The notes: generated by a model from the letters alone, not told the origin. 64,000 nt of DNA from an uncultured bacterium (GCA_964482205.1 CAYZWI010000003.1:83126-147125); one strand, 5' to 3'; positions 14,300-50,489 are shown, counted from the first letter of the stretch. Numbers and translations: made by a program.

Positions 14300-14340
14300 G
14301 AATACGCGCCGCCTCCCCAGCTTTCCTCGCTTCCCGATAG

Positions 14341-14369: not shown

Positions 14370-14531
14370 ACCGGAATCCGGACCAGAATCTCCGGGCGGC
14401 CGCCGTCTGAGCCGCTCGTGGCCGAAATCGGGTCCCTGCGCCAGGAGTTGGGCGCGAGGGCGCGAGCATGCGGCCTATTGACAGCCTGCCCAGCATTTGG
14501 CATTAGCGAGTGACCACCTGGAGGGAGTCCG

Positions 14532-18626: not shown

Positions 18627-18663
18627 TGCAGGTACGGCGGCCAGAAACGGCCAGCCGGTTGGG

Positions 18664-21761: not shown

Positions 21762-21800
21762 CTGCTGGCTCTCTCCATCTCCCGGGTCACTCGTGGATCC

Positions 21801-25129: not shown

Positions 25130-25157
25130 AGCTCTTTCCTCCTTGCTTGCAGGACTG

Positions 25158-26561: not shown

Positions 26562-26591
26562 TCCGCAATTGACGTCCGCCTCGCCAGCCCT

Positions 26592-28427
26592 CTACTTGCC
26601 GCGCCTCGTCCGCGGGGCCGGCTTGGTCTGCCCGGTCGGCCGGGTCTGCCCAGCCGACCCGGTCTTCCTGATGTCCGCGGTGGCTGGTTTGCCCGCATCC
26701 GTTCTCTGGCCCGCTCGCAAGGCGGCGGGCTGCGCCTGAGCAGCCGCCGTCGGCTGAGCCGCCGGCTCTACCGCGCCTTGCTGCTGAACACGATCCGCTG
26801 GAGCCGATCGCGCACGAGGAGTGTTCGCGTCAACATCCGAATCGTCCGAGGCTCTCCGTGACAACCCTTGGATATCGTCAGGCAGGTGCTGCCGGAGCGT
26901 GTCGCTCTTTGCCCGTGCGATCCACTCGACTGGCTCGAGTCTCATCGAAGAGGCCACGGTCCGCGCCCAGACTCCGAACACCACCAAGCCGGTGCCGCTG
27001 GAGGCAATGGCTGCAATCCTCCCGTCCGGCAAGAGATCGACATGCACCGAGGCGCCCGTCGTCGGGAGAACATTCCCATCAAGACGAAGGGGCTCGGGCG
27101 CCTGGTCCATTGTGAGCTCGGATCCTAAAGACCGGACTCGGAGCAGAAGGTAGTGCGTTCCCGGTCCGAGAGCGCCTTGCGGCAAACCCGATGCCGACGA
27201 GGATGGATCGACATGCAATTGGCCGCACTGAGAAAGAAGACTGATCAGGTCCCCCTTCTCTTCTCCGACGTACCGGCGCATACGCAGAAGACACGCGCTG
27301 GCGGTGTCGGACGGATCGGGCAGGTAGAAACCACAGAGCGCCACCAGATCGGTTTGGGGAGAAGCCGGAGCGAACCGAATGCTCATGTACGGAGCTCCCG
27401 CCGCCTGGTCCTGCAGAATCAGCCGGAGCTCGCCGCCGAAGTCATCTCCCGTGTCGGCCGGCCCTCGAATCACGTCATTCAGCGTCTGGAATGCGCCAGT
27501 CGACCAGGCCGCTGAGGGAGGCCTGTGGGCCGAATACAGGTAGTACGCCGAGCCCACGATGATACCCAGCAAGAGAGCCGCCGCAGCGGGAATCCAGTGC
27601 CACGTGAGTTTCCGGCGCCCGGCGGGTCCGAAATCCGGAACCGGCGCTTGGCTGCGCATGCGCGACCACGTGCCTCGCGGTCGTCCGCGATGGATTATCT
27701 GCACGGTGGCGTTGTCGTGACCACCGCGCTGATTCGCCAAGTCAACGAGGCGCTTGCATGCTCTCTGGGGTCCGTATTGCCGGCTCATCCAGGCCATTTC
27801 CTTGGGTGAGACGGCGTCATACAGCCCGTCCGTGCACATGATGAGGCTGTCGCCTTCCTCCAATCGGATTGGCATCGTGCAGATGTCTGGATCGATGTCG
27901 GAGGCCGGTCCGATCACGCGCTCGAGGACGTGTCGCTTGGGATGCTCACGCGCCTGTTCCACCGTGATCAGGCCGTCGTCGATCATTCTTTGCACGAGGG
28001 TATGATCCCGGGTGACTTGGGTGGCTTCGTCTTCGTGCAAATGGTAGATGCGGCCGTCTCCGATGTGACCCCACCAGGCACGATTCTCCTCCACCACGAC
28101 CACATCGAGGGTGGCGCCCATGTTGGCGAGCTCCGGCCTTTCTTCCTTGACGCTCTGGCAGGCAAAATTCGCTTCCCGCATGGCCCGGGCAATCAGCCTG
28201 CGGGGAGTCTGCCCCAAGCCTTTCTGGAACACCGCGTGCACCGCCTGCACGACAGTGCGGCTCGCTTCTCGCCCGCCCGACGCCCCACCCATTCCATCGG
28301 CGACCACGAACAGTCGCTGGGAGCCGATTTGGCAATAGAGATGGTAGTCCTCATTCGTCTCTCGAACTCTGCCGACATCACTGTGGTTGCTGACAAGCAG
28401 CGGGATCTGGCGCCGGAACAGGCTCAT
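26592..28427 (-). CDS. PP2C-family Ser/Thr protein phosphatase, membrane-anchored with extracytoplasmic C-terminal domain
   Basis: PP2C motifs are present (SDVGRVRETNEDY, FVVADGMGG, MCTDGL, GGHDNATV). A TM helix (WIPAAAALLLGIIVGSAYYLY) is followed by a periplasmic region of about 300 aa. Confidence 0.85.
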   Translation of the reverse strand: MSLFRRQIPLLVSNHSDVGRVRETNEDYHLYCQIGSQRLFVVADGMGGASGGREASRTVVQAVHAVFQKGLGQTPRRLIARAMREANFACQSVKEERPELANMGATLDVVVVEENRAWWGHIGDGRIYHLHEDEATQVTRDHTLVQRMIDDGLITVEQAREHPKRHVLERVIGPASDIDPDICTMPIRLEEGDSLIMCTDGLYDAVSPKEMAWMSRQYGPQRACKRLVDLANQRGGHDNATVQIIHRGRPRGTWSRMRSQAPVPDFGPAGRRKLTWHWIPAAAALLLGIIVGSAYYLYSAHRPPSAAWSTGAFQTLNDVIRGPADTGDDFGGELRLILQDQAAGAPYMSIRFAPASPQTDLVALCGFYLPDPSDTASACLLRMRRYVGEEKGDLISLLSQCGQLHVDPSSSASGLPQGALGPGTHYLLLRVRSLGSELTMDQAPEPLRLDGNVLPTTGASVHVDLLPDGRIAAIASSGTGLVVFGVWARTVASSMRLEPVEWIARAKSDTLRQHLPDDIQGLSRRASDDSDVDANTPRARSAPADRVQQQGAVEPAAQPTAAAQAQPAALRAGQRTDAGKPATADIRKTGSAGQTRPTGQTKPAPRTRRGK

Positions 28428-29959
28428 CAGACCTCCCCACGGAACTGAAGCACGACGCCGCCAATACGAAACCGCTGCCCGGACGTCAAGAGCGTGGGTT
28501 GATCGATCCGCTCGCCCCCGGCGAGGTACGTGCCATTCGTGCTTTGCAGGTCCTCCAGCCAGAACTGATGGTCGCGGAATTCGATGACCGCGTGGTGGGA
28601 GGAAACGCGCTCTTCATCCAAGACGATGTTGTTGTCCAGGGCCCGGCCCAACGACGTGCGCGCCGGCAGCAAGGGCAGATTCGATCCGGCCAGCGGGCCG
28701 CTTTCCACGTGCAGCGAGCCGGCGCGATAGGCCTGCAGGACCGATGTCCCGGGATCGTACATGGTCCGTTGCTTGGGCCGCGCAGCCGGCGGGGCGGCGG
28801 GGCGAGCATCCGAGCCGGACTGGACGACTCGCTGTTCCATCTCCTTGATGCTGGCCGTCGCCTGCGCAAGCTGGCCTTCCAGCTTCTGAAACGCGTCGGC
28901 CTGCTGCCTCTTTTCCTCTTCCACGCGATGCATCTCGCCCTGATACGCGAGGTGACGGGCGCGCGATCTGAACCAGAGCAACGCCGAGCACGCCGCAACG
29001 CCCACGAGGGCGATTCCGACGTAGAGCAGCCAAGGCGTCTTTTGGGGAGGGATCGCATGAAGGGGCACGCGGAAGGAGAAACTCCGCCGGACCTGGGTGG
29101 TCGGCATCTTCACCTCGAGCACGGCCGCATGTTCGGAACCGTCCGCCGGCAAGCTCGAAGTCCAGACGAACTCCCAGCGCGATTCCAGGTTGGTCCGCAT
29201 GGCCGCAAGCTTGTCCTTCCACCGCTGCCCGCTCTCGAAAGGCAGGAAGACTCCTCCCGTTTCGGTGGACAGCCGCTGAACGTTGCGCCAGTCCGTCTGG
29301 CTGCCGGACTTGATGCCGATCCCCATGATGCTGGCCCCCACCTTGGCGGCCATTTCCCGGCAGGATTCCAGGGTGTAGGCCCCCCCCTCGTTCTTCCCGT
29401 CCGAGATCAGCACGAGCACCTTGCGTTCGGGCAACCCTTCCTGCTGGAGCAACTCGAGCCCGCGCACGACGCCGTAGAACAGCTCCGTGCGCTTTCCGGG
29501 CGTCTCCATTTCACGCATCGCGGCAACCAAGGCCGAGCGGTCAACCGCGAAATCGATGAGTTGCTGCTGATCATCGTGAAAGGCCACGAGGGCACAGCGG
29601 TCGCCGTCCTCCAACCGCCCCACGAAATCGACCAAGGCAGTTCTCACCTCCGGCATCACTTCCTTCATCGAACCGGAGACGTCGACTGCAAACACGAACC
29701 CAATGCCGTTGACCAGACCGATCTTGCGCAATTCGCCCTTCACCGGCTGGTCCTTCTCCAGCACCGTCACATCCTCGACGTTCAGGCTGCTGACCAGCTC
29801 GCTGTGCTCGGACATGACTTCGAACCGAATGGCCATGCGGGGATATCCGGTCGTGTCGATGCCGGCATTCTGCAGCTCGCACACTGCGGCGTGGACGCCC
29901 GGCACAACAGAGAGCGCTACGCAGGCGGCAATCGACAGGCGGAGACAAGGCATCATCAC
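28427..29959 (-). CDS. vWA-domain / FHA-domain transmembrane protein
   Basis: Signal peptide MMMPCLRLSIAACVALSVVPGVHA. The vWA MIDAS motif is FVFAVDVSGSMKE...LISDG. A TM helix (WLLYVGIALVGVAACSALLWF) and a coiled coil follow. The C-terminal FHA domain is VSSHHAVIEF...STNGTYL. The stop overlaps the PP2C start. Confidence 0.8.
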   Translation of the reverse strand: MMMPCLRLSIAACVALSVVPGVHAAVCELQNAGIDTTGYPRMAIRFEVMSEHSELVSSLNVEDVTVLEKDQPVKGELRKIGLVNGIGFVFAVDVSGSMKEVMPEVRTALVDFVGRLEDGDRCALVAFHDDQQQLIDFAVDRSALVAAMREMETPGKRTELFYGVVRGLELLQQEGLPERKVLVLISDGKNEGGAYTLESCREMAAKVGASIMGIGIKSGSQTDWRNVQRLSTETGGVFLPFESGQRWKDKLAAMRTNLESRWEFVWTSSLPADGSEHAAVLEVKMPTTQVRRSFSFRVPLHAIPPQKTPWLLYVGIALVGVAACSALLWFRSRARHLAYQGEMHRVEEEKRQQADAFQKLEGQLAQATASIKEMEQRVVQSGSDARPAAPPAARPKQRTMYDPGTSVLQAYRAGSLHVESGPLAGSNLPLLPARTSLGRALDNNIVLDEERVSSHHAVIEFRDHQFWLEDLQSTNGTYLAGGERIDQPTLLTSGQRFRIGGVVLQFRGEV

Positions 29960-30175
29960 TTCTGCCCTCCCTGGTCAAGGACCCGAACAGTGCCTCGGGC
30001 GTGAGCAATCGGTCCCTGGGATGCGCGACGGCCACCCGACTGGCCAGGAAACAGGCCATGCCGGATCTCGACGAGGACGTTCTGGCTCGTGGGTCGACGG
30101 GAGGATTCCGGGCATGTCGCAGGCGCGAAACGGATCCTCCCGACCTGGCAGACGCGCATCTGTCAACCGCCCCGG

Positions 30176-30925
30176 TTAGATCATGTAGATCGTGAAGACC
30201 GAGCGCTTCCCGAGTTCGATCGAATCCCGGTTCTGCAAGAGAACGGCCCCCTCCGCAAACAGATCCTGCTGATTGACCTTGGTGCCGTTCATGGAATCAC
30301 AGTCCTTGATGTAGAACTGACCGTCCTGAAACCGAATGACCGCATGCCGTCCCGAAATCGTGGGATCCCAGTCGACGCAGATCTCACACTCTCTTTCGGA
30401 TCCGATGAGATTCCGGCCCTCCCGCAGTCGAAAATCTCGACCCGTCGGCCCTTGGGAGAAAGTCACCAACCAACCCACCAGCTTGCGCTCGGAAGAAGAA
30501 GCCCGGCCTGCCGGGAGACCCGGTTGCTCCGGTGCCGCCTGGACTCCCGGATCGTAGACCGTCTTCCCCTTGTCGCTCCGACCTCCGCCACCCCCTTCCA
30601 TGACCGTGCGAGGCTTCGGAGAGGATCCTCGGGCCTGGTCGCCGCGATCTCCGGTCGACGGCTGCTCCAGGATCGTGGCCCCTTTGGTGAACGCCCCTGG
30701 AGGCCCAACGGGAGGATTGGCGGAAGTGCCCGGGCTTTGGTTTCGATGGCGCGCGGTTGGCGGACAGTATTGGCACTCCGTCCAGGTCGGGTCCATGATA
30801 TGCCCGTTTGGGCAGAGCCTGGCATTCAGCTGGATTCCGCACCGTTCGCAGTAGCCATTGATTGGTTTCACTTCTGCCCGGCAGTTGGCACAGTACATGG
30901 TGCCCCTCCATTTCACTTGCCTCAC
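30176..30925 (-). CDS. FHA-domain protein with N-terminal zinc-ribbon
   Basis: Cys4-type zinc ribbons are present (CANCRAEV...CERCG and CPNGH...CQYC). A Pro/Gly-rich linker leads to a C-terminal FHA domain (GRHAVIRFQDGQFYIKDCDSMNGTKVN). This is the first gene of the minus-strand operon. The true start may be MYCANC at 30898. Confidence 0.7.
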   Translation of the reverse strand: MRQVKWRGTMYCANCRAEVKPINGYCERCGIQLNARLCPNGHIMDPTWTECQYCPPTARHRNQSPGTSANPPVGPPGAFTKGATILEQPSTGDRGDQARGSSPKPRTVMEGGGGGRSDKGKTVYDPGVQAAPEQPGLPAGRASSSERKLVGWLVTFSQGPTGRDFRLREGRNLIGSERECEICVDWDPTISGRHAVIRFQDGQFYIKDCDSMNGTKVNQQDLFAEGAVLLQNRDSIELGKRSVFTIYMI

Positions 30926-31376
30926 GGTATAGAGAACTGAGCAAGTTCCATACTAGGTAATAGTGACGCAAGGCGCAACCATGCGAAACTTGCCCGGTGG
31001 TGGCCCCCGATCGCCATTTCGACGGCCTGCCCCTGCCGGCACGAACCTCCCCCTGGGTTTCAGAAGCTTTTCCGATGTCGCAGGCGACGCAGCTGCGTCA
31101 CTTGCGCCTTCCCGGCAGAAGCTATTCCCTTCATTTGGAATTCCTTGTCGGCGTATCTTCGCGAAGACTCTGCATCCTGGCCACGCCAGCGGCGGTCGGT
31201 TGCCGCATGCGGCTCGTTATCCGCATCTGCGCAAAAAGATTGACTCTCCTCACGGTTGCGTTCCACTATCAGAGACGATCAGGACATGGCTGACATCGAG
31301 TGTTGCGATTCCGTAGCATTTGCGGTCTTCGGTCGTTCGTGTCGCTTCACAACCGTTCAACGCGAGGGTCCCCTCT

Positions 31377-32624
31377 ATGGAAGGCGGCAGCATCAATCCG
31401 GCCTTGATTGCGCTCTTGGTCTTTGTGATCGCCCTCGTCATCTACCTCATCGCCGGCTTTCGCAGGATTCCACTGGGTGCTGTGGGACTCGTCGTCACGA
31501 TGGGGAGGCGGACGGGCGATGTGCGCTCGGAGGGAAACACCTGGCTAGCTCGTTTCTTCCAGAGCGTCGTTGTCCTCTTCATTCGTGAACGCCAAGTCGA
31601 CATTCCCACGGCGCAGTACTACACATCCGACCGCGTTCGAATCGCTTTCAAGACTACGATCCGGGTTTCCGTCGCCGATGCAGCCGCATTGTTCAGCCAG
31701 GGACCTGGCACCTACGGTCCGTTTACCAGAGAAGGCTATGGAAACACCGAAAGTGGCTCGGAAGAGGCGAACATCGCTTTACGGAATTTGGTCCAAAACT
31801 CGATTCGCGAGACAATCCAGGCGATGCGCATCGATGAAGTGATGTTTGGGGGATCGTCTCAAAACTCCGTGCGGGAACTAATCCGCCAGGCACTCGCCCG
31901 AACGGCCAAGCGATGGGGCCTGGAAGTGCTCGAGGTTTGGCTGACGGATGTAGATGCGGATAATGCCGAGGTGAAAAAGGCCGTTCAGGCAGAAGTCCAA
32001 GCCACCATGGAGGGGCGCGGGCAACTGGCCAAATTCGAAGTGAAGGTTGCCCAGGGAGGGCTCTTCCAGAAGGTGGCCATGGATGTGGCCAATCTCATCT
32101 ACGACCGGACGGGAAACCGGGTGAGCCCCGACCAAGTGATGAATTTCCTGATTGGCTTCTATCGGAACGAACGCGCGCTAGATGTCGCCATGGCCGCGAG
32201 CAAGGGGACCAATGATATTCTGCAGGCGTTCTACATGCATCATGTGGGCATGCCTCTTCCCGATGCCCCGCCAGTCTTGCCGGGTTTGCAGAACGCTCCT
32301 GGAGCGGGTTTGTTTCTTGGCGGTAGTCCCGGCATCCCCTTCCTGCAAGGCTCCTGGATCATTGGCCGTGAAGGCACGATTGAAATTGACAGCCCAGGTG
32401 TGTCTCGAAGGCATGCGCGTTTGGACGGAAACGGTAGTCAGTACACGCTCACCGACCTCGGATCTTCGAATGGGACTTTTGTCAACAACGCCATGCTGAC
32501 GCCCAACTCCCCGATCCTGGTGCAACCAAGTGATTCGGTCCGGTTCGGACAGCGAGTATCGACGACAGTCGCCAGTCTCGTCCAGGCGGTCGGACGAGGA
32601 CGCTTGGATGTCCAGCCAGGATAG
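31377..32624 (+). CDS. SPFH (band-7/stomatin-like) domain protein fused to a C-terminal FHA domain
   Basis: An N-terminal TM helix (ALIALLVFVIALVIYLIAGF) is followed by an SPFH core (IPLGAVGLVVTMGRR...YYTSDRVRIAFKTTIRVSV) and a coiled coil. The C-terminal FHA domain is GSWIIGREGTIEIDSPGVSRRHARLD...LTDLGSSNGTFVNN. The ATG at 31377 lies in frame within the listed ORF. The gene is divergent from the kinase operon. Confidence 0.7.
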   Translation: MEGGSINPALIALLVFVIALVIYLIAGFRRIPLGAVGLVVTMGRRTGDVRSEGNTWLARFFQSVVVLFIRERQVDIPTAQYYTSDRVRIAFKTTIRVSVADAAALFSQGPGTYGPFTREGYGNTESGSEEANIALRNLVQNSIRETIQAMRIDEVMFGGSSQNSVRELIRQALARTAKRWGLEVLEVWLTDVDADNAEVKKAVQAEVQATMEGRGQLAKFEVKVAQGGLFQKVAMDVANLIYDRTGNRVSPDQVMNFLIGFYRNERALDVAMAASKGTNDILQAFYMHHVGMPLPDAPPVLPGLQNAPGAGLFLGGSPGIPFLQGSWIIGREGTIEIDSPGVSRRHARLDGNGSQYTLTDLGSSNGTFVNNAMLTPNSPILVQPSDSVRFGQRVSTTVASLVQAVGRGRLDVQPG

Positions 32625-35241: not shown

Positions 35242-36888
35242 TCATTTCCGCGCGCGCGAGACGCCCGCCCCGCGGCCGCCGCGCTGAGACCTGGTTTTCT
35301 TGCTGGGCGCTTTCTTGCCGACGGTCCTCTTGGCCGGCGTTCTTGTGGGGCTTGGTTTACCCTTGCTTGACCGCTTCGCGATCGATGTCGTCGTGCGCTT
35401 CGTAGGTGCCTTCGATGCACGCTTCGCGGGCGCTTTCGTCGCGGGCGGCACAGCGCGCTTCCCCGTTCCCGTCGCCGCACGCTTCCTGGCCGCTCTCGTG
35501 GCCGGCACGTGCTGTTCCCCATGCGCGTGAATGCTGATGCCCTTCACATTCACGAATTCGCGCAATCCGAAATGCGAGAGCTCTCGCCCGAAGCCGCTTT
35601 GCTTCACGCCGCCAAAGGGCATGCGCGGGTCGGACTTGACGACGCTGTTCACGAAGGTCGTGCCCGCCTCGAGCCTGCGCAGCAGGCGTTCGCCGCGGCG
35701 AAGATCCGGCGTCCAGACGCTGGCACCCAATCCGAAGGGGCTCGCGTTCGCGATTCGCACGGCATCGTCGTCATCTCTCGCGGCGATCACCGGAGCGATT
35801 GGGCCGAAGACCTCTTCGAGCACGACCGGCATTTGCGCATTCGCATTCGCGACGACCGTGGGCGCGAAGTAGAATCCCGGCCGCTCGAGCCGCTGCCCTC
35901 CGGTGACGACGCGCGCGCCCATGCTCACGGATTGCTCCATTTGCCGGGTGAGTTGAGCGACCGCATCTTCATCGACGAGCGGCCCCACTTCCGTGCTTTC
36001 CTCTTGCGGATCTCCGACGACGAGCGCTTCCATCCCCGCCGCAAATCGTTCGGTGAAGGCTTCGACGAGCGGTTCAGCCACGATGAAGCGCTTGGCGGCG
36101 ATGCAGCTCTGCCCCGTGTTGATCATCCTTCCCGCGACCGCCTGACGCGCCGCGAATTCCACATCGGCGTCGTCGAGCACGATGAAGGCGTCCGATCCGC
36201 CCAGTTCGAGCACGACCTTCTTCAACGCCCGGCCCGCGGTCTCGGCAATGCGCGCACCCGCTTCGGTGCTGCCGGTCAGGGAGACGCCCTGGATCCATTC
36301 GCCTTCGAACAACCCGCTCACCGTCTTGTGATCGGTGAAGATCGCTCGAAAGATGTTGGGAGGAAACCCCGCCTCGCGAAACGCGCGCTCGATGGCGAGC
36401 GCGCATTGAGGCACATTGCGCGCGTGCTTGAGGAGGCTCGCGTTGCCGGCGAGCACCGCGGGAACACCAAAGCGCAACGCCTGCCAAAAGGGAAAATTCC
36501 AGGGCATGATCGAGAGGATCACGCCCAACGGCTCGAAGACCACGCGGTTCTCGATCCCGCCCGCATCCACCGTTTCCTCGGCGAGCCAATCGGGACCGTA
36601 TTCCGCGTAGATCTCGGCCAGCCACGCGCACTTCTCGATTTCCGCACGCGATTGCGCGATCGGTTTTCCCATCTCGGTGGTGATGTGGCGGGCATTCGTC
36701 TCGAGACTGTCGCGCAACACCGCCGCGAGGCGGAAGAAGAGCCCGGCGCGCTCGGTCACATCGACATCGCGCCATTCGGTATAGGCCTCACGCGCCTGCC
36801 GGGCGATGGCGCGCACATCCTCGCGGCAGGAAGTCTCATATCCGCCGGCCGCTTCGCCGGTGGCCGGATTGACGAGCTCGATTCTCAT
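35242..36888 (-). CDS. NAD(P)+ aldehyde dehydrogenase (succinate-semialdehyde-DH-like) with about 90-aa Lys/Ala/Pro-rich histone-H1-like C-terminal tail
   Basis: ALDH motifs VVLELGGSDAF, catalytic Cys in GQSCIAAKR, and EEVFGPIAP. The tail is in frame with no intervening stop: KRAATGTGKRAVPPATKAPAKRASKAPTKRTTTSIAKRSSKGKPSPTRTPAKRTVGKKAPSKKTRSQRGG. The start MRIELVNP lies inside the listed ORF. Confidence 0.8.
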   Translation of the reverse strand: MRIELVNPATGEAAGGYETSCREDVRAIARQAREAYTEWRDVDVTERAGLFFRLAAVLRDSLETNARHITTEMGKPIAQSRAEIEKCAWLAEIYAEYGPDWLAEETVDAGGIENRVVFEPLGVILSIMPWNFPFWQALRFGVPAVLAGNASLLKHARNVPQCALAIERAFREAGFPPNIFRAIFTDHKTVSGLFEGEWIQGVSLTGSTEAGARIAETAGRALKKVVLELGGSDAFIVLDDADVEFAARQAVAGRMINTGQSCIAAKRFIVAEPLVEAFTERFAAGMEALVVGDPQEESTEVGPLVDEDAVAQLTRQMEQSVSMGARVVTGGQRLERPGFYFAPTVVANANAQMPVVLEEVFGPIAPVIAARDDDDAVRIANASPFGLGASVWTPDLRRGERLLRRLEAGTTFVNSVVKSDPRMPFGGVKQSGFGRELSHFGLREFVNVKGISIHAHGEQHVPATRAARKRAATGTGKRAVPPATKAPAKRASKAPTKRTTTSIAKRSSKGKPSPTRTPAKRTVGKKAPSKKTRSQRGGRGAGVSRARK

Positions 36889-39222: not shown

Positions 39223-40125
39223 CTACCGCCCGCTCTCTTCCCGCGCCCAATCGACCGCTCTCCGAATCGCGCGAATGTGTTCGGGGGTCGTGCCGCAGCA
39301 GCCGCCGATGATCTGCGCTCCCGCCGCGATCAACTCGGGAACGCGCGCGGCCATGAATTCCGGCGTCTCGGAATAGACGGGCCGTCCCTCTTCCAACGAG
39401 GGCAGCCCCGCGTTCGATTGAATCACGATCGGCCGCTCGCTCGCCGCGCGGAAGGCGCGCGCGATGGCGACCATCTGCTCGATCCCGTTGCCGCAGTTCG
39501 AGCCGATCACATCTGCGCCCGCCGGCGCGAGCCCGGCCGCCGCCTGCTCGATGCTGTTGCCCATGATCGTGAAGAAACCGCGCGGTGTGGGATCGAAGGT
39601 CATCGACGCGATCACGGGGAGGCCGGGCGCTGCTTCCCGGGCCGCCTCCACCAGCAGCTTCGCCTCCGCGAGATCGGTCATCGTCTCGATGATGATCGCA
39701 TCGGCCCCCGCTTGCGTGAGCACGCGAATCTGACGCGCGAATCCATCTTTGAGCTCCGCCGGCTCGGCATCGCCATACGGCTTCAGCATGCGGCCGCTCG
39801 GCCCGCAGCAAGCCGCCACGCACGCGCGAACGCCCGCCACTTCGCGCACAGCTTCCACGGCAATGCGATTGATCTCTTCCATGCGGCTATCGAGGCCGTA
39901 GAAGGCGAGCTTCGCGGGAGAGCCGCCGAAGGTGTTCGTCTCGAGGATCTGTGCGCCGGCATCGAGGTAGAGTTGGGCGATCTCTTTCAGAATCTCCGGA
40001 CGCTCGAGGTTCACCGACTCGGGCGGCGAGCCCGGCGGAAGACCGCGCGCGATGAGGAGCGTTCCCATGGCGCCGTCGCAGACGAGGACTTCTCCGCTTC
40101 GCAACCGCTCGAGAAGCGTTGGCAT
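39223..40125 (-). CDS. Homocysteine-binding S-methyltransferase domain protein (MetH N-terminal-module-like, PF02574)
   Basis: N-terminus LLERLRSGEVLVCDGAMGTLL. The zinc-ligand cysteines are conserved: IGSNCGNG and GGCCGTTPEHIRAI. Confidence 0.8.
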   Translation of the reverse strand: MPTLLERLRSGEVLVCDGAMGTLLIARGLPPGSPPESVNLERPEILKEIAQLYLDAGAQILETNTFGGSPAKLAFYGLDSRMEEINRIAVEAVREVAGVRACVAACCGPSGRMLKPYGDAEPAELKDGFARQIRVLTQAGADAIIIETMTDLAEAKLLVEAAREAAPGLPVIASMTFDPTPRGFFTIMGNSIEQAAAGLAPAGADVIGSNCGNGIEQMVAIARAFRAASERPIVIQSNAGLPSLEEGRPVYSETPEFMAARVPELIAAGAQIIGGCCGTTPEHIRAIRRAVDWAREESGR

Positions 40126-40180
40126 GCGATCCTCCGATTGCGCGACTTCCCGGAAGTCCTCGAAGGGCGGAGCCTGATCC

Positions 40181-40813
40181 CTACGCGAGCAGCGCCCTCA
40201 CGCGCTCGACCGCGTTCGCTCCATCGAAGGCGTAGTCATCCGCCCCGATCTTGCGCGCGTACTCCGCCGACACGGGCGCGCCGCCGATGATCGTGCGCAC
40301 TTGGCCCGTCAGGCCGCGCTCGCGGATGAGTGCCGTCACGCGCTCCATCGTCGGCATCGTCGTCGTCAGCAGCGCTGACATGCCGATCACGCGCGCGCCC
40401 GATTCCTGCGCGGCCGCGAGGAATCGTTCGGGCGCGACATCGTGACCGAGATCGATCACTTCGAACCCCGCCCCGCGCAGCATCACCGCCACCAGGTTCT
40501 TGCCGATGTCGTGGAGATCGCCCTGCACGGTGCCGAGCACGACCTTGCCGACCGTCGGAATCCCTTCCTTGACCAGCAACGGCTTCAACTCATCCATGCC
40601 CGCGTACATCGCCTTGGCCGCCATCAGCACATCGGGCAGGAAGATCTCGTGGACGCGAAACTTCTCGCCGATCACATTCATCCCGGCGATCAGGCCGCGG
40701 TCGAGGATCTCTTTCGGAGCGATTCCCTGGGTGATCGCTTCGCGCGTGAGCGCCTGCACCCGTTCGTCGTCGCCCCGCTGCAATTCCTCGGCAATGCGTT
40801 CCAGGATGTCCAT
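40181..40813 (-). CDS. Corrinoid (cobalamin)-binding protein, MtmC/MtbC/MetH-B12-module-like
   Basis: B12-binding cap helix bundle MDILERIAEELQRGDDERVQAL. The DxHxxG His-on motif is GDLHDIGKNLV, in a Rossmann-like B12 domain. The start Met is inside the listed 303-aa ORF. Confidence 0.8.
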   Translation of the reverse strand: MDILERIAEELQRGDDERVQALTREAITQGIAPKEILDRGLIAGMNVIGEKFRVHEIFLPDVLMAAKAMYAGMDELKPLLVKEGIPTVGKVVLGTVQGDLHDIGKNLVAVMLRGAGFEVIDLGHDVAPERFLAAAQESGARVIGMSALLTTTMPTMERVTALIRERGLTGQVRTIIGGAPVSAEYARKIGADDYAFDGANAVERVRALLA

Positions 40814-40827
40814 CAATCTTCCTTTCC

Positions 40828-41619
40828 TCAACCTGCGCTCTTGGCCGCTGCCTTGCGCCCGCGATCGACGCACTCGCGCGAACGGCACGACCCGCAGAAC
40901 GGAAACTCGGCCGCGAAGGAGTGGATTTCGGGCCTCCCGAGCACGATCGCGCCCGAAATCGACTTGAGCGGACTCATGAGACAACTCTCTCCGAGTCGAA
41001 TGCCGATCGCTTCGGGCCCCAATTCGGCGAAGAGCGCCCGCTGGCCGGTCACATCCCAGCCGCAATAGCCGGGACTGTATCGCATCGCGCACAAACGCCC
41101 CGCCGATTCATCGGCGCGCGATCCGTCGCGCTTCTCGCACGGTGCAAGAAACCGCGCTTCCCACCGCTCTTCCAGAGTTTCCGCCGCACGCTCGGCCGCT
41201 TCCGACGCGGCCGCATCGAGAACCGCAGCAAGGGCGAATTCGCGCGCTTGAAATAACTCTGCGATCTTCCGCTCGACCTCCGCCCCAATCGTGACGGCGA
41301 AGATCGCGAGCCGTTCGGCCTTCGGGAAGATGCCGGCTAAGGGGCCTTCCGGCGCATTCTTCCCTTCGCCCTGATAGATGAACGCGAACCGTTCGGGGCT
41401 CACATCCTTCCACACGCCCACCGGCTCTGCACACTCCCGTACAACATCGAGCGCGCGAGAGAGCAGTTCCGATGTCCGCGCGCCCTGGTGGGCACCCGAG
41501 TCCGCCTCCGCGGCTCCCGGCAACCCGAGCGCGCAGCGCACGCGCTCGACATCGGGCACGATCTCTTCCGCGGACATGCGCACGATCTCGCCCATCGCGA
41601 TTGGCCTCACGCTTCGCAT
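40828..41619 (-). CDS. Methionine-synthase activation (AdoMet-dependent reactivation) domain-like protein
   Basis: MRYSPGYCGWDVTGQRALFAELGPEAIGIRLGESCLMSPLKSISGAIV matches the Met_synt_B12 pattern (R.SPGY...LTES..M.P.aSvSG). The C-terminal segment is FPFCGSCRSRECVD. Confidence 0.6.
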   Translation of the reverse strand: MRSVRPIAMGEIVRMSAEEIVPDVERVRCALGLPGAAEADSGAHQGARTSELLSRALDVVRECAEPVGVWKDVSPERFAFIYQGEGKNAPEGPLAGIFPKAERLAIFAVTIGAEVERKIAELFQAREFALAAVLDAAASEAAERAAETLEERWEARFLAPCEKRDGSRADESAGRLCAMRYSPGYCGWDVTGQRALFAELGPEAIGIRLGESCLMSPLKSISGAIVLGRPEIHSFAAEFPFCGSCRSRECVDRGRKAAAKSAG

Positions 41620-41674
41620 CCGCTCTGCGGCATCGCGACTCCGCTTCGAATCCGTTCCGTGGCCGCGACTGCCC

Positions 41675-43141
41675 TCACGCTTCCAATCCGCTCTTGGGCA
41701 GCGCGTCCATCCCGAATTTGCGCGCCTCCTTTTGCATGAGCCGCGTGAGCTCGGTCTTCGCCTCCTTGGACAATCTCGAAGGCTGCGCCGCCGCCACCAA
41801 CCGCTCGACTTCGCGATGCGCGCGCTCTCCCAAAGTGAGGCCGCCCTCTTCCATCCAGCGGGCGCGATTGGCGCGATCGATCGCGGGGCCGGGGATGTAG
41901 TGCTCGTCGCGCAAGTGACGCCGCGTGTGCTTGGAGATGAGCAAGTGGCCTTCGCGCAGCAATTCCTCGAAGCGCTCCAGCGAAGGGAAATCCTCGCGTG
42001 GCGCGATGCCTTCCGCCAACCGGCCGGCGAGGCCGCAGATCTCGTTGTCGACCACGAGCTTTTCGAGACTCTGGCAGCTCTCGAAGTCGAGCATGCCCGG
42101 CCCCGAGACGCTGTTCACCCCCGAGAGCATCGCAAGCGTCGCGCCCATCGAAGTCTCGAGCCCCGCCTGCGCGTCGAGCTGCTTGGCGTCGCTCAGTCCG
42201 ATGTAGGCCTGCGTCGGCATCCCGAGATGCTTGCCGATCTCGCTGTAGGCGCAATCGATCATCTGCGTCTCGACCGCGCCCATCGGAGTCGTCTCGTAGC
42301 GCACATCGAAGATCGCGGGCGATCCGCCGTAGAGCACCGGAGCGCCCGGGCGGGCGAGCTGGGTGAGGACCACTCCGCTCAGCGTCTCGGCGGTGTGCTG
42401 AATGAGCGAGCCCACCAAGGTGACCGGCCCCATGAAGCCGGCCAGCGGCATCGAGACATATTCCACCGGCACGCCGTCGCGCGCGCAGTCGAGCAGGTTC
42501 TGCGAAGTCACTTCGCTCCACTTGAGCGGCGCGGTGGGACAGACGGAGAAGATCGTGAGCGGTTTCGCGCGCAGCTCCTCGGCCGATCCGCGCACCGCGA
42601 TCTGCAGGTCGCGCATGAGCTCGTACGAAGGAATCGTGAAGGCCCCGGTCACGACCGGCTTCTCGCCGTGCAGCAGGCTCAAGTACAGCCGGTAGCTGTC
42701 CTGGATGCCGGCCGGAACATCGGCCGCGATCATCGCCGTGCTCTGCGAAGCGATGTGCTTCAACCCCGCGACGAGCTTCGTGTAGCGCACATAATCGGCG
42801 GTTTCGGGCCGGCGCATCGCGCCCGAGGGATAGTCGAGGATGTGAATGGCCGCCGAGCCGGGAGTGAAATAGACACGGTCGTCGATGAAGTCGTGGGTCT
42901 CGTTTCCCAGAACATCGTAGAGCTTGAACGACCGGGGCACCCGTCGCAGCGCCTCGTCGATCATCGCCTGCGTCAAACGCACGCGGCCGTCGGCGTGGCC
43001 GACTTGCGCGCCGTTGTCGGCGAGCAGCCGGACGGCGCGATCGTTGTGGACCTCGAGGCCCAGCCGGCAGAGGAGATCCCGCCCTTCGGTCACGATGCGT
43101 TCCAGCAACGGGTCGTCGAGGAATCTGAGCCGTGGTCTCAC
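41675..43141 (-). CDS. MttB-superfamily methyltransferase (non-pyrrolysine trimethylamine-methyltransferase homolog; quaternary-amine:corrinoid methyltransferase-like)
   Basis: 488 aa. The N-terminus LDDPLLERIVTEGRDLLCRLGLEVHNDRAVRLLADNGAQV fits the MttB TIM-barrel family pattern. There is no in-frame stop, which is consistent with non-Pyl members. Confidence 0.7.
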   Translation of the reverse strand: MRPRLRFLDDPLLERIVTEGRDLLCRLGLEVHNDRAVRLLADNGAQVGHADGRVRLTQAMIDEALRRVPRSFKLYDVLGNETHDFIDDRVYFTPGSAAIHILDYPSGAMRRPETADYVRYTKLVAGLKHIASQSTAMIAADVPAGIQDSYRLYLSLLHGEKPVVTGAFTIPSYELMRDLQIAVRGSAEELRAKPLTIFSVCPTAPLKWSEVTSQNLLDCARDGVPVEYVSMPLAGFMGPVTLVGSLIQHTAETLSGVVLTQLARPGAPVLYGGSPAIFDVRYETTPMGAVETQMIDCAYSEIGKHLGMPTQAYIGLSDAKQLDAQAGLETSMGATLAMLSGVNSVSGPGMLDFESCQSLEKLVVDNEICGLAGRLAEGIAPREDFPSLERFEELLREGHLLISKHTRRHLRDEHYIPGPAIDRANRARWMEEGGLTLGERAHREVERLVAAAQPSRLSKEAKTELTRLMQKEARKFGMDALPKSGLEA

Positions 43142-43332
43142 GAAACGCTCCTTCCCTTGCGCGTCGAAGAAGATGCGGCAACGAAACGAGCGTAAGGGAG
43201 GATCGCGAAGGGAAGCAAGAACGGAGCGCGTCCGTTCAGGGAGCCGGCGTGCGCTTGTTCATGGATCGTCCACGAACAAACGACGACGCTCCGCGCCCCG
43301 GGCGCTCGCGCATGCGGCCATGCGGACCGGAA

Positions 43333-47015: not shown

Positions 47016-50012
47016 CTATTTCGCCAGCACCACCCGGCGCGTGAACGCTTGCCCGCGCGCATCCAGGCGCACGAAGTAGATCCCGCTTCCGAGATCGTCT
47101 CCGCGATCGTCGCGGCCGTCCCAAGCCAGTTCGGTGACGCCCGCATCCACGCGGCCGCTCGCCAGCGTGCGCACGCGCCGGCCGGCGGCGTCGAACACCG
47201 CCACATCCACTTCCTCGCTCCCAGGCAGCGCGAGCGCGATGCGCGTCGAGCCGGCGAAGGGATTCGGTCCGCGGGTGAAGAGGGCGATGGCAAGATCGCC
47301 TTCGCGCGGACCGACTCCAGAGAAGGCGTCGCCGGTGTCGAAGGCGATGTCGTCGATCCAGAAGCCGGGGCCGTTCACTCCTTGGTCGGAGCCGAACAGC
47401 ACGCGGAAGGAAAGATGCGACGAAATGTACGGCGTGAGATCGAAGACCGTTCCCACCCAACCGCCGGTCGATCCCGACCATCCGTCGCGATAGTCCAATC
47501 CGCCCAACGTCGCCGAGCCGTATCCCGGCAGCGGAACGATCGGCACCCAAGCAGAAGTGCTCGCATCCCACACATCCACGGCCGCGCCGTCGTAGTCCGC
47601 TTCGGTCTCGCACCAGTAGTGAAAGCTGAGCTTCAACTCCTGCACGCCTGAGAAATCGTAGGAAGGGCTGGTCAAGTAGCCGCTCACATCGTCGTCGTAG
47701 TCGCCGTTCATGCCCACGCCCCAGCAACGCGCGCCGCTGAAGCCCCCGGTCGGCCCATCCGCTCCCACGGGCGTACCGCGCGACCAGATCGGATCGCCGG
47801 TGAATCCGTTCGCCCCGGATTCGAAATCCGCCGTCACCGCCGGCAACTGCAGGAAAATGCCGTAGTCGAAGCGCGCGGGACGCTCGACTGCGACGCTGGC
47901 GAATTCCGCGCCGTGGCCGGGCCGGCCGTCGAAGAGAAACGCGTAGGTGTGTCCCATCGGAAAGCCGTCGATCGCCCAATCGCCCTGCAGATCGGTCGAG
48001 GTCGCACCGATGGGAACGCCTTGCGGAGCGACGCGTACGCCGGGCAGAGGCGTGACGCCGTCGTCGCTGATCACGCTCCCGCCGATTTCCACCGTCGGGC
48101 GCAGCGCGAGGGCGGCGTCCTGCGTCGTCGTCTGCCCGCCCGCGATCTCGATCGGCAAGCTCATCTCTTCGTACAAGAACGAATCGAATTCGAGGGTGTA
48201 GCTGTCCGCGCGCAGGGGAATGGCGTAGTCGCCATTGGAGGCCGTGACGGCGTACGCTCCCGTCTCGGGAATGCGCACATCGATTCCCGCGAGCGGCTGC
48301 CCCGTTCCTTGCGCCGTCACCGTGCCGGCGACTCTGCCGATGCCCGACTGCGCTTCCGCCCAGGCCGCGGTCAAGTGCGGCCGCGGTCCGATGTGGGCCG
48401 TTCCCGTTTGCGGTGTGCCGGTCTCAACCAAGATCTCGCGCGCCAGATGCGCGTCCAGCGGAATGCCGAAAGCGGCTTTGACCATGCCCTGCAGCGAAGC
48501 CACCGATCCGGCGACGATCGGAGTCGCGCTGGAAGTGCCGGAAAAGGTGTCGGTGTACCATTCCGTTTCGTCGCCGTCTTGCAGATTGCCGTATCCGCAA
48601 GTCACGACATTGTATCCCCATCCGTGCAGATCCACGCGCGCGCCGTAGTTCGTGAAGCCCGCCGGCTCGAGGCTCGAGCCGTCGCTCGCTCCGCAGAGAA
48701 TCGCGCCCGAATCGCGCGCCTCGCGGTCGAACAGGCTTCCGTACACCGGATCGTCATAGTTCTGCGAACCGTTGCCCGCCGCTTCGCAGCAGATCCTTCC
48801 ATTGGCCGTGGCGATCTGGATCGCTTCGAAATTGTCCAGCCAGAATTCCATGCAGACATACCCGAACTGCCCTTCGCCGGTCGCATTGGGACCGGGCGCG
48901 TGCAGCTCGATCACGAAGATGTCGCCGGGGGCGAGCTGCGCCGAAGCGGTGTTGATCGCGTCGGCCACCGAAAGCTCGGCGATCGACACGCCACCGATTT
49001 GCGCGAGATTCGCGATGCCGCTCACGCCGTACGAATTGCTCGTGCCTCGAATCTCGCCCATGACCGCCGTGCCGTGGTTGCGCCAGCTCGCATCCGTCAT
49101 CTCGCCGCCCGCCGTGAAGAAGGGCGTCACGAGGTCTTCGTGGTCCCACAGCCAAGCCCCTTCGATGTCGATCAACTTCACCGTCTGACCGCGTCCGCCC
49201 GCGATCGTCCACACGCCTTCCGCGTCGACGCCGAGGGGCGCGGGATCGAGATAGCCCTGCTGATCGACGAAACTGGGAGTGGGCAGCAACGCGCCCGCCG
49301 GGATGGCGGCCTCGCGGCCAAGCGTCCGCACGCGCGCATCCAGCGAAGGGGCCTGCACGATCGCGTGCGCGCGCATTTCCTCTGCGGCCGCATGAGGATC
49401 GTACCGGCCGGTGAAGGCATCGAAGCCGAGCGCCGCGGGAACGGCGACCGGCTCGAGAAAGGCCGCTTCCACAGCCGGATCGGCCGAGAGCTCGGCGACC
49501 ATGTCGAGGAGCTCCGCGCGCGAGAGCGAACGCGAAGGAACGATCTGCGCGTAACGATTCAGATCGGGAAGCGCGCGCCCCGAGCGACGCTCCGCTTCTT
49601 GCCGCTCGGCGTCGAGATCGTCCGCCGAACGCGAGAAGTGACGCTGCAGGCGCACATCGCCGTGCGCGGCCCGCAAGCGGTCGAGCAATCCACGCACGCG
49701 CTCCAGTTGGGGCGCCGCGGCTTCCGGACCCTCCTCCTTCATGCGCACGCCCGTCGATGCGGCGAACTTGACGACGATCCGTCCCGAAGGAGCGGGCGTT
49801 TGGAGCGCAAGGTGGCGATCGATGGAGAGCTTCGAGGCGCGGCCCGGATTCGGGCTGTGCGGACGAGCGGTCGGGCTGTTCGAACGGGCGGCGCGCGATT
49901 CGAGCGCAGGAGTAAGCTCAGGGGAATGGGCCAGGGCCGACAGCATCGGCACGCAGGCGAGAAGCGCGATGAGGGGCAGGAAGAACGCCACGATGCGGCG
50001 CAAGTCCTTCAT
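47016..50012 (-). CDS. Secreted S8 subtilisin-family peptidase with carboxypeptidase-regulatory-like domains and a T9SS/FlgD-Ig-like C-terminal sorting domain
   Basis: Signal peptide MKDLRRIVAFFLPLIALLACVPMLSALA. Subtilase His (NHGTAVMG) and Ser (GTSSATPIVAG) motifs. CarboxypepD_reg-like segments are present. The C-terminal 85 aa (PNPFAGSTRIALALP...GIYFVRLDARGQAFTRRVVLAK) match the Por-secretion-tail/FlgD-Ig pattern. Confidence 0.8.
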   Translation of the reverse strand: MKDLRRIVAFFLPLIALLACVPMLSALAHSPELTPALESRAARSNSPTARPHSPNPGRASKLSIDRHLALQTPAPSGRIVVKFAASTGVRMKEEGPEAAAPQLERVRGLLDRLRAAHGDVRLQRHFSRSADDLDAERQEAERRSGRALPDLNRYAQIVPSRSLSRAELLDMVAELSADPAVEAAFLEPVAVPAALGFDAFTGRYDPHAAAEEMRAHAIVQAPSLDARVRTLGREAAIPAGALLPTPSFVDQQGYLDPAPLGVDAEGVWTIAGGRGQTVKLIDIEGAWLWDHEDLVTPFFTAGGEMTDASWRNHGTAVMGEIRGTSNSYGVSGIANLAQIGGVSIAELSVADAINTASAQLAPGDIFVIELHAPGPNATGEGQFGYVCMEFWLDNFEAIQIATANGRICCEAAGNGSQNYDDPVYGSLFDREARDSGAILCGASDGSSLEPAGFTNYGARVDLHGWGYNVVTCGYGNLQDGDETEWYTDTFSGTSSATPIVAGSVASLQGMVKAAFGIPLDAHLAREILVETGTPQTGTAHIGPRPHLTAAWAEAQSGIGRVAGTVTAQGTGQPLAGIDVRIPETGAYAVTASNGDYAIPLRADSYTLEFDSFLYEEMSLPIEIAGGQTTTQDAALALRPTVEIGGSVISDDGVTPLPGVRVAPQGVPIGATSTDLQGDWAIDGFPMGHTYAFLFDGRPGHGAEFASVAVERPARFDYGIFLQLPAVTADFESGANGFTGDPIWSRGTPVGADGPTGGFSGARCWGVGMNGDYDDDVSGYLTSPSYDFSGVQELKLSFHYWCETEADYDGAAVDVWDASTSAWVPIVPLPGYGSATLGGLDYRDGWSGSTGGWVGTVFDLTPYISSHLSFRVLFGSDQGVNGPGFWIDDIAFDTGDAFSGVGPREGDLAIALFTRGPNPFAGSTRIALALPGSEEVDVAVFDAAGRRVRTLASGRVDAGVTELAWDGRDDRGDDLGSGIYFVRLDARGQAFTRRVVLAK

Positions 50013-50489
50013 GGAGAATCCTCCGGAGTTGTCGGACCTCGAGAAGCGAAGCAACGAGGGGGCATACACCAGCCCGGCGACCTCGATTCCATTGTAGCAG
50101 AAGCGGGTGACTGCCCGCGCCGGCTCCGTCGCCCCTGTGTTCGGCCGGTCACAGAATGCCCGGAAATCGGGCCGAAAGCTGCCATTTCCAGGCGCCGGCG
50201 AGCCTCGGTCCCAACTCACGCCCCCATCGTGAAAGATCCTTCCGCTCAGCCAATCCAAGTGCAACGGCAGGAGCGGCGCAGGAGCCGGGTATTCCGGCTC
50301 CGCGATCGAGAAGAATTCTTCTTGTCGCCGATGTTCCCCTCTCCCGCTCCTTGCGATAGAATCTCCCGTTCGTGACATCCATGTTCACTCGAAATCGGGG
50401 GGACCTCCATGCATTGTAGATTCTCCGGCCGCTGCTCGCGCTTCTCGTCCTGGTTTCGTGCGTCTCGATGGTCGCGATCGAGCCTGGCG

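Follow-up and report, generated by a model that had tools for sequence, protein, structure and literature searches.

The gene cluster that most closely resembles the locus described here was recognised in 2022 by Williams et al. (Environ Microbiol 24:2576; PMC9324843), who reported an identical four-gene cluster in Electryoneota and "diverse bacteria" and hypothesised that it makes methionine by a corrinoid-dependent route from an unspecified methyl donor. That cluster encodes the same four products as the present locus, with an MttB homologue that falls outside the MtgB and MttB clades and nearer to MttB; the host phylum differs, being Candidatus Eisenbacteria here, and the two are compared by description and not by gene sequences. 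The MAGs of Williams et al. that hold the cluster also encode full-length MetH (PMC9324843), so that the cluster is not necessarily a housekeeping methionine synthase. Their study was purely genomic, the donor-site residues, the Cys motif and the Terriglobia variant presented below lie outside its coverage, and the literature searched yielded neither biochemical nor genetic experiments on clusters of this type. A sequence-only reading of the present locus had suggested that the arrangement might be undescribed, which is wrong given this report and the related MtgB/MtgC/MtgD/MtgE network (PMC12478193).

MtgBCDE is a dual glycine-betaine methyltransferase/split methionine synthase of Ruegeria pomeroyi, Phaeobacter inhibens and Sinorhizobium meliloti, for which Mausz et al. 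2025 presented genetic evidence in R. pomeroyi (PMC12478193). Like the present operon it combines a PF06253 donor module with corrinoid and PF02574 homocysteine (Hcy) modules that are each a protein of their own, and it resembles the operon as a modular B12 system coupling methyl-donor demethylation to methionine synthesis; genetic support from Ruegeria shows a shared corrinoid core serving both the MttB-family donor module and the PF02574 module (PMC12478193). MtgBCDE requires however a pterin module, MtgD (PF00809), and passes the methyl group via THF, whereas no such module is present in the 64 kb window, that is, the whole stretch of 64,000 nucleotides analysed here. Reactivation in MtgBCDE is by RamA and DUF1638 and not by a PF02965 protein as in the operon, MtgC is reported to be CmuA-like while the corrinoid protein here is MttC/1y80-like, and the donor is glycine betaine, for which the MttB-like protein of the operon lacks the binding residues. 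In this relative, the one that has been studied experimentally, methionine synthesis does not proceed without MtgD, which is a counterpoint to a four-protein reading of the cluster. Mausz et al. also cite a split MetH from Price et al. 2018 (PMC12478193).

The individual modules have further counterparts. The Hcy-Zn, B12 and activation modules of MetH are homologous to those of the operon, and the naturally split MetH of T. maritima, with TM0268 and the stand-alone activation protein TM0269 (PDB 1q7m and 1j6r), is a precedent for a separate activation protein. In place of the pterin (methyl-THF) module of MetH there is however an MttB-superfamily protein here, the corrinoid protein belongs to the methylotrophic type, and the activation protein has an extra 4-Cys motif. 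An MttB-superfamily MT1 with the same type of corrinoid protein is also found in MtgB/MtgC/MtgA of Desulfitobacterium hafniense and in MtpB/MtcB/MtyB/MthB with MtqC and MtqA of Eubacterium limosum, but those systems have THF as acceptor through a pterin methyltransferase, RamA/RamQ as activase and a catabolic role. BHMT, also a PF02574 member, methylates homocysteine to methionine with a methylammonium donor and no folate, yet it is a single enzyme that transfers the methyl directly and without a corrinoid. For the folate-independent methionine synthases of the core-MetE type, Deobald et al. 2020 (PMC7005905) give methylcobalamin and not methyl-THF as the methyl source for homocysteine. Core-MetE is in function an analogue of the acceptor half in the present proposal, but it has the unrelated fold of the MetE family instead of PF02574 and is not known to be encoded with a dedicated MttB-type donor enzyme.

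The operon occupies positions 39223 to 43141 on the minus strand in a Candidatus Eisenbacteria host and consists of four intact, tightly spaced genes running from the MttB-like gene to the Hcy module, with intergenic gaps of 79, 14 and 55 nt. The domains that the sequence-only reading had claimed for these four consecutive genes were all matched by profile searches (PF06253, PF02965, PF02607 with PF02310, and PF02574). As in the cluster of Williams et al., the genes for the four products are co-located, and the MttB homologue among them is without pyrrolysine and belongs to neither the MtgB nor the MttB clade. The upstream intergenic region (43142 to 43332, minus strand) was read and scanned for terminators; a Shine-Dalgarno sequence, AAGGAG, lies at 43148 to 43153, 6 nt ahead of the GTG start of the MttB-like gene, and a terminator-like hairpin at 43285 to 43297 belongs to the preceding M48 peptidase gene on the same strand, while no terminator-like site was found inside the operon. 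Downstream the neighbour is a convergent gene for a GT87-like membrane protein. Unrelated genes border the operon on both sides. The window covers a further 39 kb to one side of it and 21 kb to the other, and a PF00809/pterin, MetH, MetE or folate gene was not found across these 64 kb, nor any C1-oxidation gene linked to the operon. A decayed or fragmented MetH, left as pseudogene pieces with the pterin piece just beyond the window, has in its favour a superficial resemblance to three MetH modules and is effectively refuted by the intact ORFs with invariant catalytic motifs, the PF06253 identity of the first gene and the MttC type of the corrinoid protein, the unrelated flanks devoid of a pterin ORF, and the maintenance of the same organisation across more than 20 phyla.

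The first gene (41675 to 43141, minus strand) encodes 488 aa, and that an MttB-superfamily member heads the operon was borne out by a PF06253 match of 247.9 bits (E 1.6e-73) covering profile positions 29 to 498 of 500. The protein lies about as far from MtgB of D. hafniense (2qne/9yce, 186 bits) as from MttB of M. barkeri (7xcl, 182 bits), and its orthologues have 65-72% identity in more than 20 phyla among the best 80 of at least 579 matched stretches. The gene has no in-frame stop. A genuine trimethylamine methyltransferase MttB was ruled out by Leu316 in the column of M. barkeri Pyl334 and by a TIGR02369 score of 335.6 bits, under the cutoff of 525. The betaine site of MtgB has been defined by mutagenesis and a bound structure, Y97 and F356 making cation-pi contacts and R312 and H348 holding the carboxylate, and the R312-type Arg is kept in all characterised quaternary-amine members (PMC13080624). 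In the present protein the four columns are S96, Q311, S346 and E354, so that this Arg is a Gln, and the replacements are invariant in 18 of 18 clade members. The glycine betaine methyltransferase MtgB was rejected on these grounds, and the earlier idea that the donor is a quaternary amine, for instance glycine betaine, was not supported: judged from these residues, glycine betaine or another acidic quaternary amine is probably not the donor. The pocket looks apt for a non-acidic, cationic methyl compound. No transporter or catabolic gene pointing to the donor was linked to the 80 loci analysed, and no riboswitch pointing to the donor or to methionine regulation was found at the operon or at 16 orthologous clusters.

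It is improbable that the MttB-clade protein replaces the pterin module by itself binding methyl-tetrahydrofolate or another cofactor-bound methyl, the operon then being an unusual split MetH. We know of no PF06253 member that binds pterin, and the E. coli pterin domain has no sequence similarity to the MttB-like protein. A split MetH with such a pterin stand-in would also be redundant beside the complete MetH in the same MAGs of Williams et al. (PMC9324843).

The corrinoid protein (40181 to 40813, minus strand, 210 aa; PF02607 and PF02310) has MtgC_2 as its best NCBIfam match with 212 bits, under the cutoff of 370, and reaches 194 bits against pyl_corrinoid with a cutoff of 215. Since these equivalog cutoffs are unmet, it is a corrinoid protein of the MttC/MtgC type that belongs to no named subfamily. 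Its nearest PDB entries are Moorella 1y80 (190 bits) and MttC 7xcn_M (164 bits), and the MetH B12 domain follows with 110 bits. The last gene (39223 to 40125, minus strand, 300 aa) matches PF02574 with 234 bits (E 3.6e-69), and among PDB entries the encoded Hcy module scores highest with the Hcy domain of T. maritima MetH (1q7m, 164 bits), well above BHMT (76) and MmuM-type HMT (67). It retains the DGAMGT and ETNTF motifs, C211 and C275/C276 align with the Zn ligands of T. maritima MetH, and the protein is without a fusion partner. The DxHxxG motif (GDLHDIGKN) and the Zn-ligand cysteines, both noted earlier, are invariant in 57 and 50 orthologues, respectively. By its sequence the Hcy module is assigned to the MetH type, which uses methylcobalamin, and not to the BHMT or MmuM type.

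The presence of an AdoMet reactivation-domain homolog was likewise substantiated. The second gene (40828 to 41595, minus strand) encodes a stand-alone activation protein of TM0269/MetH type that matches PF02965 with 46.6 bits (cutoff 25); the ORF could be extended to 41619, but the 255 aa used here is the length called in public records, where an identical product is already found. A profile matches TM0269 (1j6r, E 6e-11), and the fold is assigned from an AF2 model (pLDDT 91.5) for which the best Foldseek match was 1j6r (TMt 0.82, probability 1.00), followed by MetH activation domains. A family-specific 4-Cys motif is formed by C178 in PGYCGW and C234-x2-C237-x4-C242, the last three cysteines sitting in a C-terminal extension. 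The 49 homologues compared all retain S174-P-G-Y-C-G-W180, C234, C237 and C242, whereas TM0269 has PGYGD in place of PGYCGW and lacks the extension. The RxxxGY motif, which we take from the structure of the E. coli MetH activation domain to bind AdoMet, corresponds to R172-Y-S-P-G-Y177, in which P-G-Y is invariant, but only 24 of the 54 family members have the Arg. The 4-Cys motif is an addition of the present work, and the site may be an entry point for the electron, in the form of a bound metal or Fe-S centre.

The distribution of the cluster was investigated by scanning a species-dereplicated genome set with clade-specific peptides, which matched at least 579 stretches; the best 80, from more than 20 phyla, were analysed, and the 63 with at least 3.5 kb downstream were considered informative. 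The four-gene synteny, which the sequence-only reading had proposed to look for in other genomes, was found with the same order and strand (MttB-Act-Cor-Hcy) in other species, at 41 of the 63 loci, which is far beyond what chance would give. Four further loci of the 63 have an MttB-Cor-Hcy arrangement; as a counterpoint, 16 have the MttB-clade gene without partner genes nearby. Pairwise distances co-vary between the four proteins, their matrices correlating with r 0.50-0.73 (Mantel 0/500), and all-against-all clustering of ORFs from the 80 loci gave no additional gene family in more than seven loci. This cluster type, already recognised in 2022, is widespread.

The operon could also be one part of an MtgBCDE-like network, in which the corrinoid protein is a hub that also serves a pterin methyltransferase (of MtgD/MtgA/MtqA type) from elsewhere in the genome; methionine would then still come mainly from methyl-THF, and the MttB-like enzyme would mainly feed donor methyl groups into the folate pool. 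MtgC and MtgD are both needed for methionine synthesis and betaine demethylation in R. pomeroyi, where such a network is seen, the mtg genes are often dispersed (PMC12478193), and at one related locus (L082) a pterin-binding gene lies 1.3 kb from the MttB-clade gene. Among the 80 related loci, however, no pterin gene was found within 10 kb of the canonical four-gene clusters, which together with the window agrees with the claimed lack of a pterin module in or beside the operon, and with the E. coli MetH pterin domain as query just one of 81 sequences gave a homologue within 10 kb, at a non-canonical locus. The Hcy module is moreover the constant partner of the MttB gene here, whereas mtgE is usually unlinked to mtgBCD in marine bacteria (PMC12478193), the corrinoid protein is of MttC/1y80 type and not CmuA-like as Ruegeria MtgC is reported to be, and neither C1-oxidation nor folate genes are linked in the 64 kb window. 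Such a shared network is rather unlikely.

A second architecture, an addition of the present work, was observed in two Terriglobia loci (L025 and L048), where the same MttB clade occurs in a different operon with a PF02574 module and a corrinoid protein. RACo and DUF1638 reactivation genes were found only in this variant, and the association of MttB with the Hcy module thus recurs independently of the reactivation system. The variant operon has in addition URO-D-family (MtaA/MtbA-like) methyltransferases, which hint at further donors or acceptors on the same corrinoid, and no Rfam family, be it a SAM or B12 riboswitch or any other, was found upstream of the operon or the 16 orthologous clusters, so that no methionine-responsive riboswitch was found there. 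Both observations would fit a PF02574 protein with a thiol or selenol different from homocysteine as its methyl acceptor, or a system that mainly disposes of or catabolises the donor. With an Hcy module closest to genuine MetH Hcy domains and with the Zn triad, DGAMGT and ETNTF kept, and with one methyl per acceptor and no downstream catabolic genes, an anabolic logic, this is very improbable. Homocysteine, the acceptor predicted earlier, would fit well, as the logic of donor to corrinoid to homocysteine agrees with the four-gene conservation and with the Terriglobia association of MttB and PF02574.

In the proposed mechanism the MttB-clade enzyme, as MT1, would demethylate a small methylated donor and methylate the dedicated corrinoid protein in its Co(I) form, and the MetH-type Zn module, as MT2, would transfer the methyl group from methyl-Co(III) to homocysteine, yielding methionine. 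The TM0269-like activation protein would rescue corrinoid oxidised to Co(II) by methylating it reductively with AdoMet, and the electron may enter through the 4-Cys site of this protein. Domain identities, intact catalytic motifs, the modelled fold of the activation protein, conserved synteny, the lack of a linked pterin gene and the replacement of the betaine site are observed; the direction and partners of the methyl flow, the use of AdoMet, a metal at the Cys site and the donor class we infer. The operon is probably a self-contained four-protein system for corrinoid-dependent methyl transfer leading to methionine without a folate-binding module.

The minus-strand interval 39223-43141 holds four intact genes separated by gaps of 79, 14 and 55 nt, and profile searches with Pfam and NCBIfam bore out all four domain assignments of the sequence-only reading. 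The first gene (41675-43141) encodes an MttB-superfamily methyltransferase (PF06253, E 1.6e-73) and is followed by genes for an activation protein (40828-41595; Met_synt_B12, PF02965, 46.6 bits with a cutoff of 25), a corrinoid protein (40181-40813; B12-binding_2 and B12-binding) and a homocysteine-binding Zn module, here called the Hcy module (39223-40125; S-methyl_trans, PF02574, E 3.6e-69). A good Shine-Dalgarno sequence precedes the operon's GTG start. Upstream lie an M48 peptidase gene and then a terminator-like hairpin, detected by terminator scan, and downstream is a convergent gene for a GT87-like membrane protein. The window was placed on contig JAEAME010000018.1 of MAG GCA_016294925.1, and near-identical proteins are deposited under Candidatus Eisenbacteria.

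Public gene calls and Pfam scans, covering essentially all 64 kb, revealed no pterin-binding, MetH, MetE, MetF or C1 gene in the window, and that the cluster is a fragmented MetH is effectively refuted. No transporters, C1-oxidation or dimethylglycine/sarcosine genes were linked to the operon within the window, a BKACE gene about 23 kb from the operon is too far off for linkage, and Rfam gave no match at gathering thresholds in the entire window. The rest of the window carries peptidases, Ser/Thr kinase-FHA-PP2C signalling genes, an aldehyde dehydrogenase, a TPP enzyme and similar genes. In the aldehyde dehydrogenase (35242-36888, minus strand; PF00171, 548 aa as called), roughly the last 90 residues form a Lys/Arg/Pro/Ala-rich tail (e.g. 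...KRAVPPATKAPAKRASKAPTKR...) that resembles histone H1-like low-complexity sequence and overlaps the start of the next gene, that of the TPP enzyme, by 11 nt. A dense signalling cluster at about 18600-32600 (minus strand), unrelated to the methyltransferase operon, comprises three FHA-domain proteins (one with VWA), a PP2C phosphatase, three Ser/Thr kinases, a TPR/SLT protein and an NlpC/P60 protein. At 47016-50378 (minus strand) a large S8 subtilase of 998 aa as called, with CarboxypepD_reg, MAM-like and C-terminal FlgD_ig domains, is surrounded by further secreted peptidases (S41, M48, M2-like); such a set is typical for Eisenbacteria-like MAGs.

When one genome per species was scanned with clade-specific peptides, at least 579 matching stretches were obtained, the best 80 of which show 65-72% identity to the MttB-like protein of the window. 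These best 80 loci are from MAGs without exception and are spread over Acidobacteriota, Aminicenantes, Eisenbacteria, Zixibacteria, WOR-3, TA06, Planctomycetota/Phycisphaerae, Ignavibacteria, Gemmatimonadota, Cloacimonadota, Fibrobacterota, Calditrichota, Elusimicrobiota, Krumholzibacteriia, Fermentibacteria, Verrucomicrobiota and others; locus L058, with a canonical cluster, lies on a complete Phycisphaerales chromosome (CP070744.1). Synteny was counted in the 63 loci with at least 3.5 kb of downstream sequence. The look into other genomes that had been proposed from the sequence found the same four genes, methyltransferase, activation protein, corrinoid protein and Hcy module, in the same order and on the same strand in 41 of them, while 4 lacked the activation gene only and 16 had the MttB-clade gene alone. 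The distance matrices of the four proteins were pairwise correlated (r 0.50-0.73, Mantel 0/500), which fits inheritance or transfer as a unit. The four-gene cluster is thus a real, conserved unit.

All-against-all ORF clustering of the 80 loci placed any further gene family in at most 7 loci and gave no conserved fifth gene, whether for a pterin protein, a transporter, an activase or a regulator. A tblastn search with the pterin domain of E. coli MetH found a homologue in just 1 of 81 sequences, the non-canonical locus L082, and the earlier claim that a pterin module is missing holds within the window. In Ruegeria, genetics has shown the corrinoid protein MtgC and the pterin protein MtgD to be common to two pathways, betaine demethylation with the PF06253 protein MtgB and methionine synthesis with the PF02574 protein MtgE (Mausz et al. 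2025, PMC12478193). That the present genes work in a network of this kind with an unlinked pterin methyltransferase is unlikely, and against it stand the constant linkage of the Hcy gene and the fact that no folate gene is linked. A pterin-binding gene close to the MttB-clade gene occurs in L082 alone (12579-13385, minus strand; 17522-19640, plus strand). This locus also encodes a second MttB, a distant paralogue of 29% identity, together with a corrinoid protein of its own, a set resembling a conventional quaternary-amine:THF system beside an orphan clade gene. In four other loci (L081, L005, L009 and L013) the gene next to the Hcy gene on its downstream side, and running against it, encodes a DUF362 protein with two ferredoxin-type 4Fe-4S motifs (13770-14933, minus strand, in L081), and a partial match lies about 3 kb further out in L035; this adjacency could reflect lineage synteny or a redox partner.

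The closest solved structure to the Hcy module is the Hcy domain of Thermotoga maritima MetH (164 bits), far ahead of BHMT (76 bits) and the MmuM-type homocysteine methyltransferase (67 bits), and none of the three Zn cysteines varies among 50 orthologues. The module is accordingly assigned to the MetH type by its sequence, and a different thiol as the acceptor, or a mainly catabolic role, appears very improbable. The corrinoid protein, in which DxHxxG is invariant among orthologues, is closest to the Moorella structure 1y80 and Methanosarcina barkeri MttC, with the MetH B12 domain behind, and is classed as methylotrophic.

The activation protein has a stand-alone homologue in T. maritima, TM0269, which its profile matched at E 6e-11; its AlphaFold model (pLDDT 91.5) superposed on the TM0269 structure 1j6r (TMt 0.82), with MetH activation domains next. 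Its S-P-G-Y is retained. The protein of the window also has the Arg of RxxxGY, a residue shared by only 24 of 54 relatives. Specific to the family are four invariant cysteines, C178 (in PGYCGW) and C234-x2-C237-x4-C242 in a C-terminal extension, found in orthologues from L005 to L084 and missing from both T. maritima TM0269 and E. coli MetH. As a candidate Zn or Fe-S site, this set may serve as the electron entry for reactivation.

The MttB-like protein is about equidistant from Desulfitobacterium hafniense MtgB and M. barkeri MttB, has Leu in the pyrrolysine column and scores below the NCBIfam cutoff for the true MttB equivalog. That it is an analogue of the pterin module is improbable. In MtgB, glycine betaine is held by Y97 and F356 through cation-pi contacts and by R312 and H348 at the carboxylate, and R312 is conserved across all characterised members, all of them users of acidic quaternary amines (Picking et al. 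2026, PMC13080624). In an L-INS-i alignment these columns (Y97/F356/R312/H348) are occupied by S96, E354, Q311 and S346 in all 18 clade sequences, and by G, G, Y and Y in M. barkeri MttB; the surrounding stretch SGPGMLDFESC, including D352 and E354, is likewise invariant in the clade. With the betaine-site columns replaced, the clade is predicted not to bind glycine betaine in the manner of MtgB and probably does not use acidic quaternary amines at all, so that the quaternary-amine donor suggested earlier, glycine betaine, is disfavoured and doubtful. We infer that the donor may be a non-acidic cationic methyl compound.

Rfam, which detected no SAM or B12 riboswitch in 16 orthologous loci, returned only PYLIS_3, above its gathering threshold near codon 315 of non-Pyl mttB-like coding sequences (L013 3659-3758, L005 4103-4202, L009 1006-1105, L032 2773-2872 and L073 5119-5217). 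The matched position is UAG in true MttB and Leu in the clade genes; since the UAG is absent, the matches are read as coding-sequence homology to true mttB and not as a functional PYLIS, and they could mislead automated annotation.

In two Terriglobia loci, L048 (3491-11461, plus strand) and L025 (10001-17207), an MttB-clade protein of 70% identity was placed in a different operon, in the order PF02574 Hcy, DUF1638, a URO-D-family methyltransferase, a RACo/RamA-type activase (Fer2+RACo), a corrinoid protein, a second URO-D-like protein (L048 only) and MttB. RamA and DUF1638 are the reactivation pair assigned to the split MetH of Phaeobacter/Ruegeria (PMC12478193). The association of the MttB clade with Hcy and corrinoid proteins thus recurs with a different reactivation system, giving independent support for a functional link.

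The belief that the arrangement was undescribed proved wrong. For Candidatus Electryoneota, Williams et al. 2022 (PMC9324843) describe an MttB/MtgB homologue whose gene is clustered with counterparts of three MetH modules, the homocysteine-binding, the cobalamin-binding and the activation module; they report the cluster from "diverse bacteria", propose that it makes methionine from an unknown methyl donor, and note full-length MetH in the cluster-bearing MAGs too. The cluster type is therefore already known, and the literature search found it, in its pterin-free four-gene form, put to neither a biochemical nor a genetic test. New in the present analysis are how widely and strictly the synteny is kept, the replacement of the betaine-site residues, the family-specific four-cysteine set of the activation protein and the Terriglobia RACo/DUF1638 variant.

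Beside the observed domain identities, motifs and synteny of the cluster stands a methyl flow from donor via corrinoid to homocysteine, which is considered reasonably probable because of the established chemistry of MttB-type MT1 (donor-to-corrinoid) enzymes, corrinoid proteins and MetH modules. The MttB-like MT1 would transfer the donor methyl group to the Co(I) corrinoid protein, the resulting methyl-Co(III) would be demethylated by homocysteine to give methionine through the MetH-type Zn MT2 (corrinoid-to-homocysteine methyltransferase), and the TM0269-like protein would use AdoMet and a reductant to rescue occasional Co(II). As a whole, the earlier interpretation as a folate-free methionine synthase is partly supported: it is plausible and strengthened in its mechanism, wrong in its claim to novelty and doubtful in its donor class. 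A more tentative joint reading is that the four proteins suffice as a methionine synthase that depends on B12 but not on folate and is spread over more than 20 phyla, most of them uncultured, with a non-acidic methylated amine (e.g. trimethylamine, choline or a related cation) as donor, a non-Pyl MttB clade with a new pocket and an AdoMet reactivation protein with its own Cys4 metal/Fe-S centre for electron entry. If true, environmental methylamines would feed the pools of methionine and AdoMet directly by a new route, and the non-Pyl MttB enzymes would gain a new class of substrate.

Genes of this clade are routinely labelled "trimethylamine methyltransferase", and metabolic inference has been built on the label, for example in mercury methylators, where MttB was inferred to pass trimethylamine methyl groups to HgcA in MetH-less MAGs of Zixibacteria, Desulfobacterota and Spirochaetota (2025, PMC12484752). 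Zixibacteria are among the present loci; if these MttB genes belong to the clade, the annotation as TMA methyltransferase is doubtful and the missing MetH would fit the cluster acting as methionine synthase.

The MttB superfamily is very large and most of its members are without assigned function. Identification of the donor would extend the chemistry of the superfamily, because the acidic quaternary-amine residues of the characterised non-Pyl MttB enzymes are replaced in the clade, and the cluster, four small genes moving as a unit without other conserved partners, is an unusually clean experimental target. If the proposed flow is right, many bacteria of sediment, soil and peat would be able to draw on an environmental methyl compound for methionine and, through it, AdoMet. 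No folate-bound C1 unit would then have to be reduced for this purpose, and the known cobalamin demand of these communities would be larger still.
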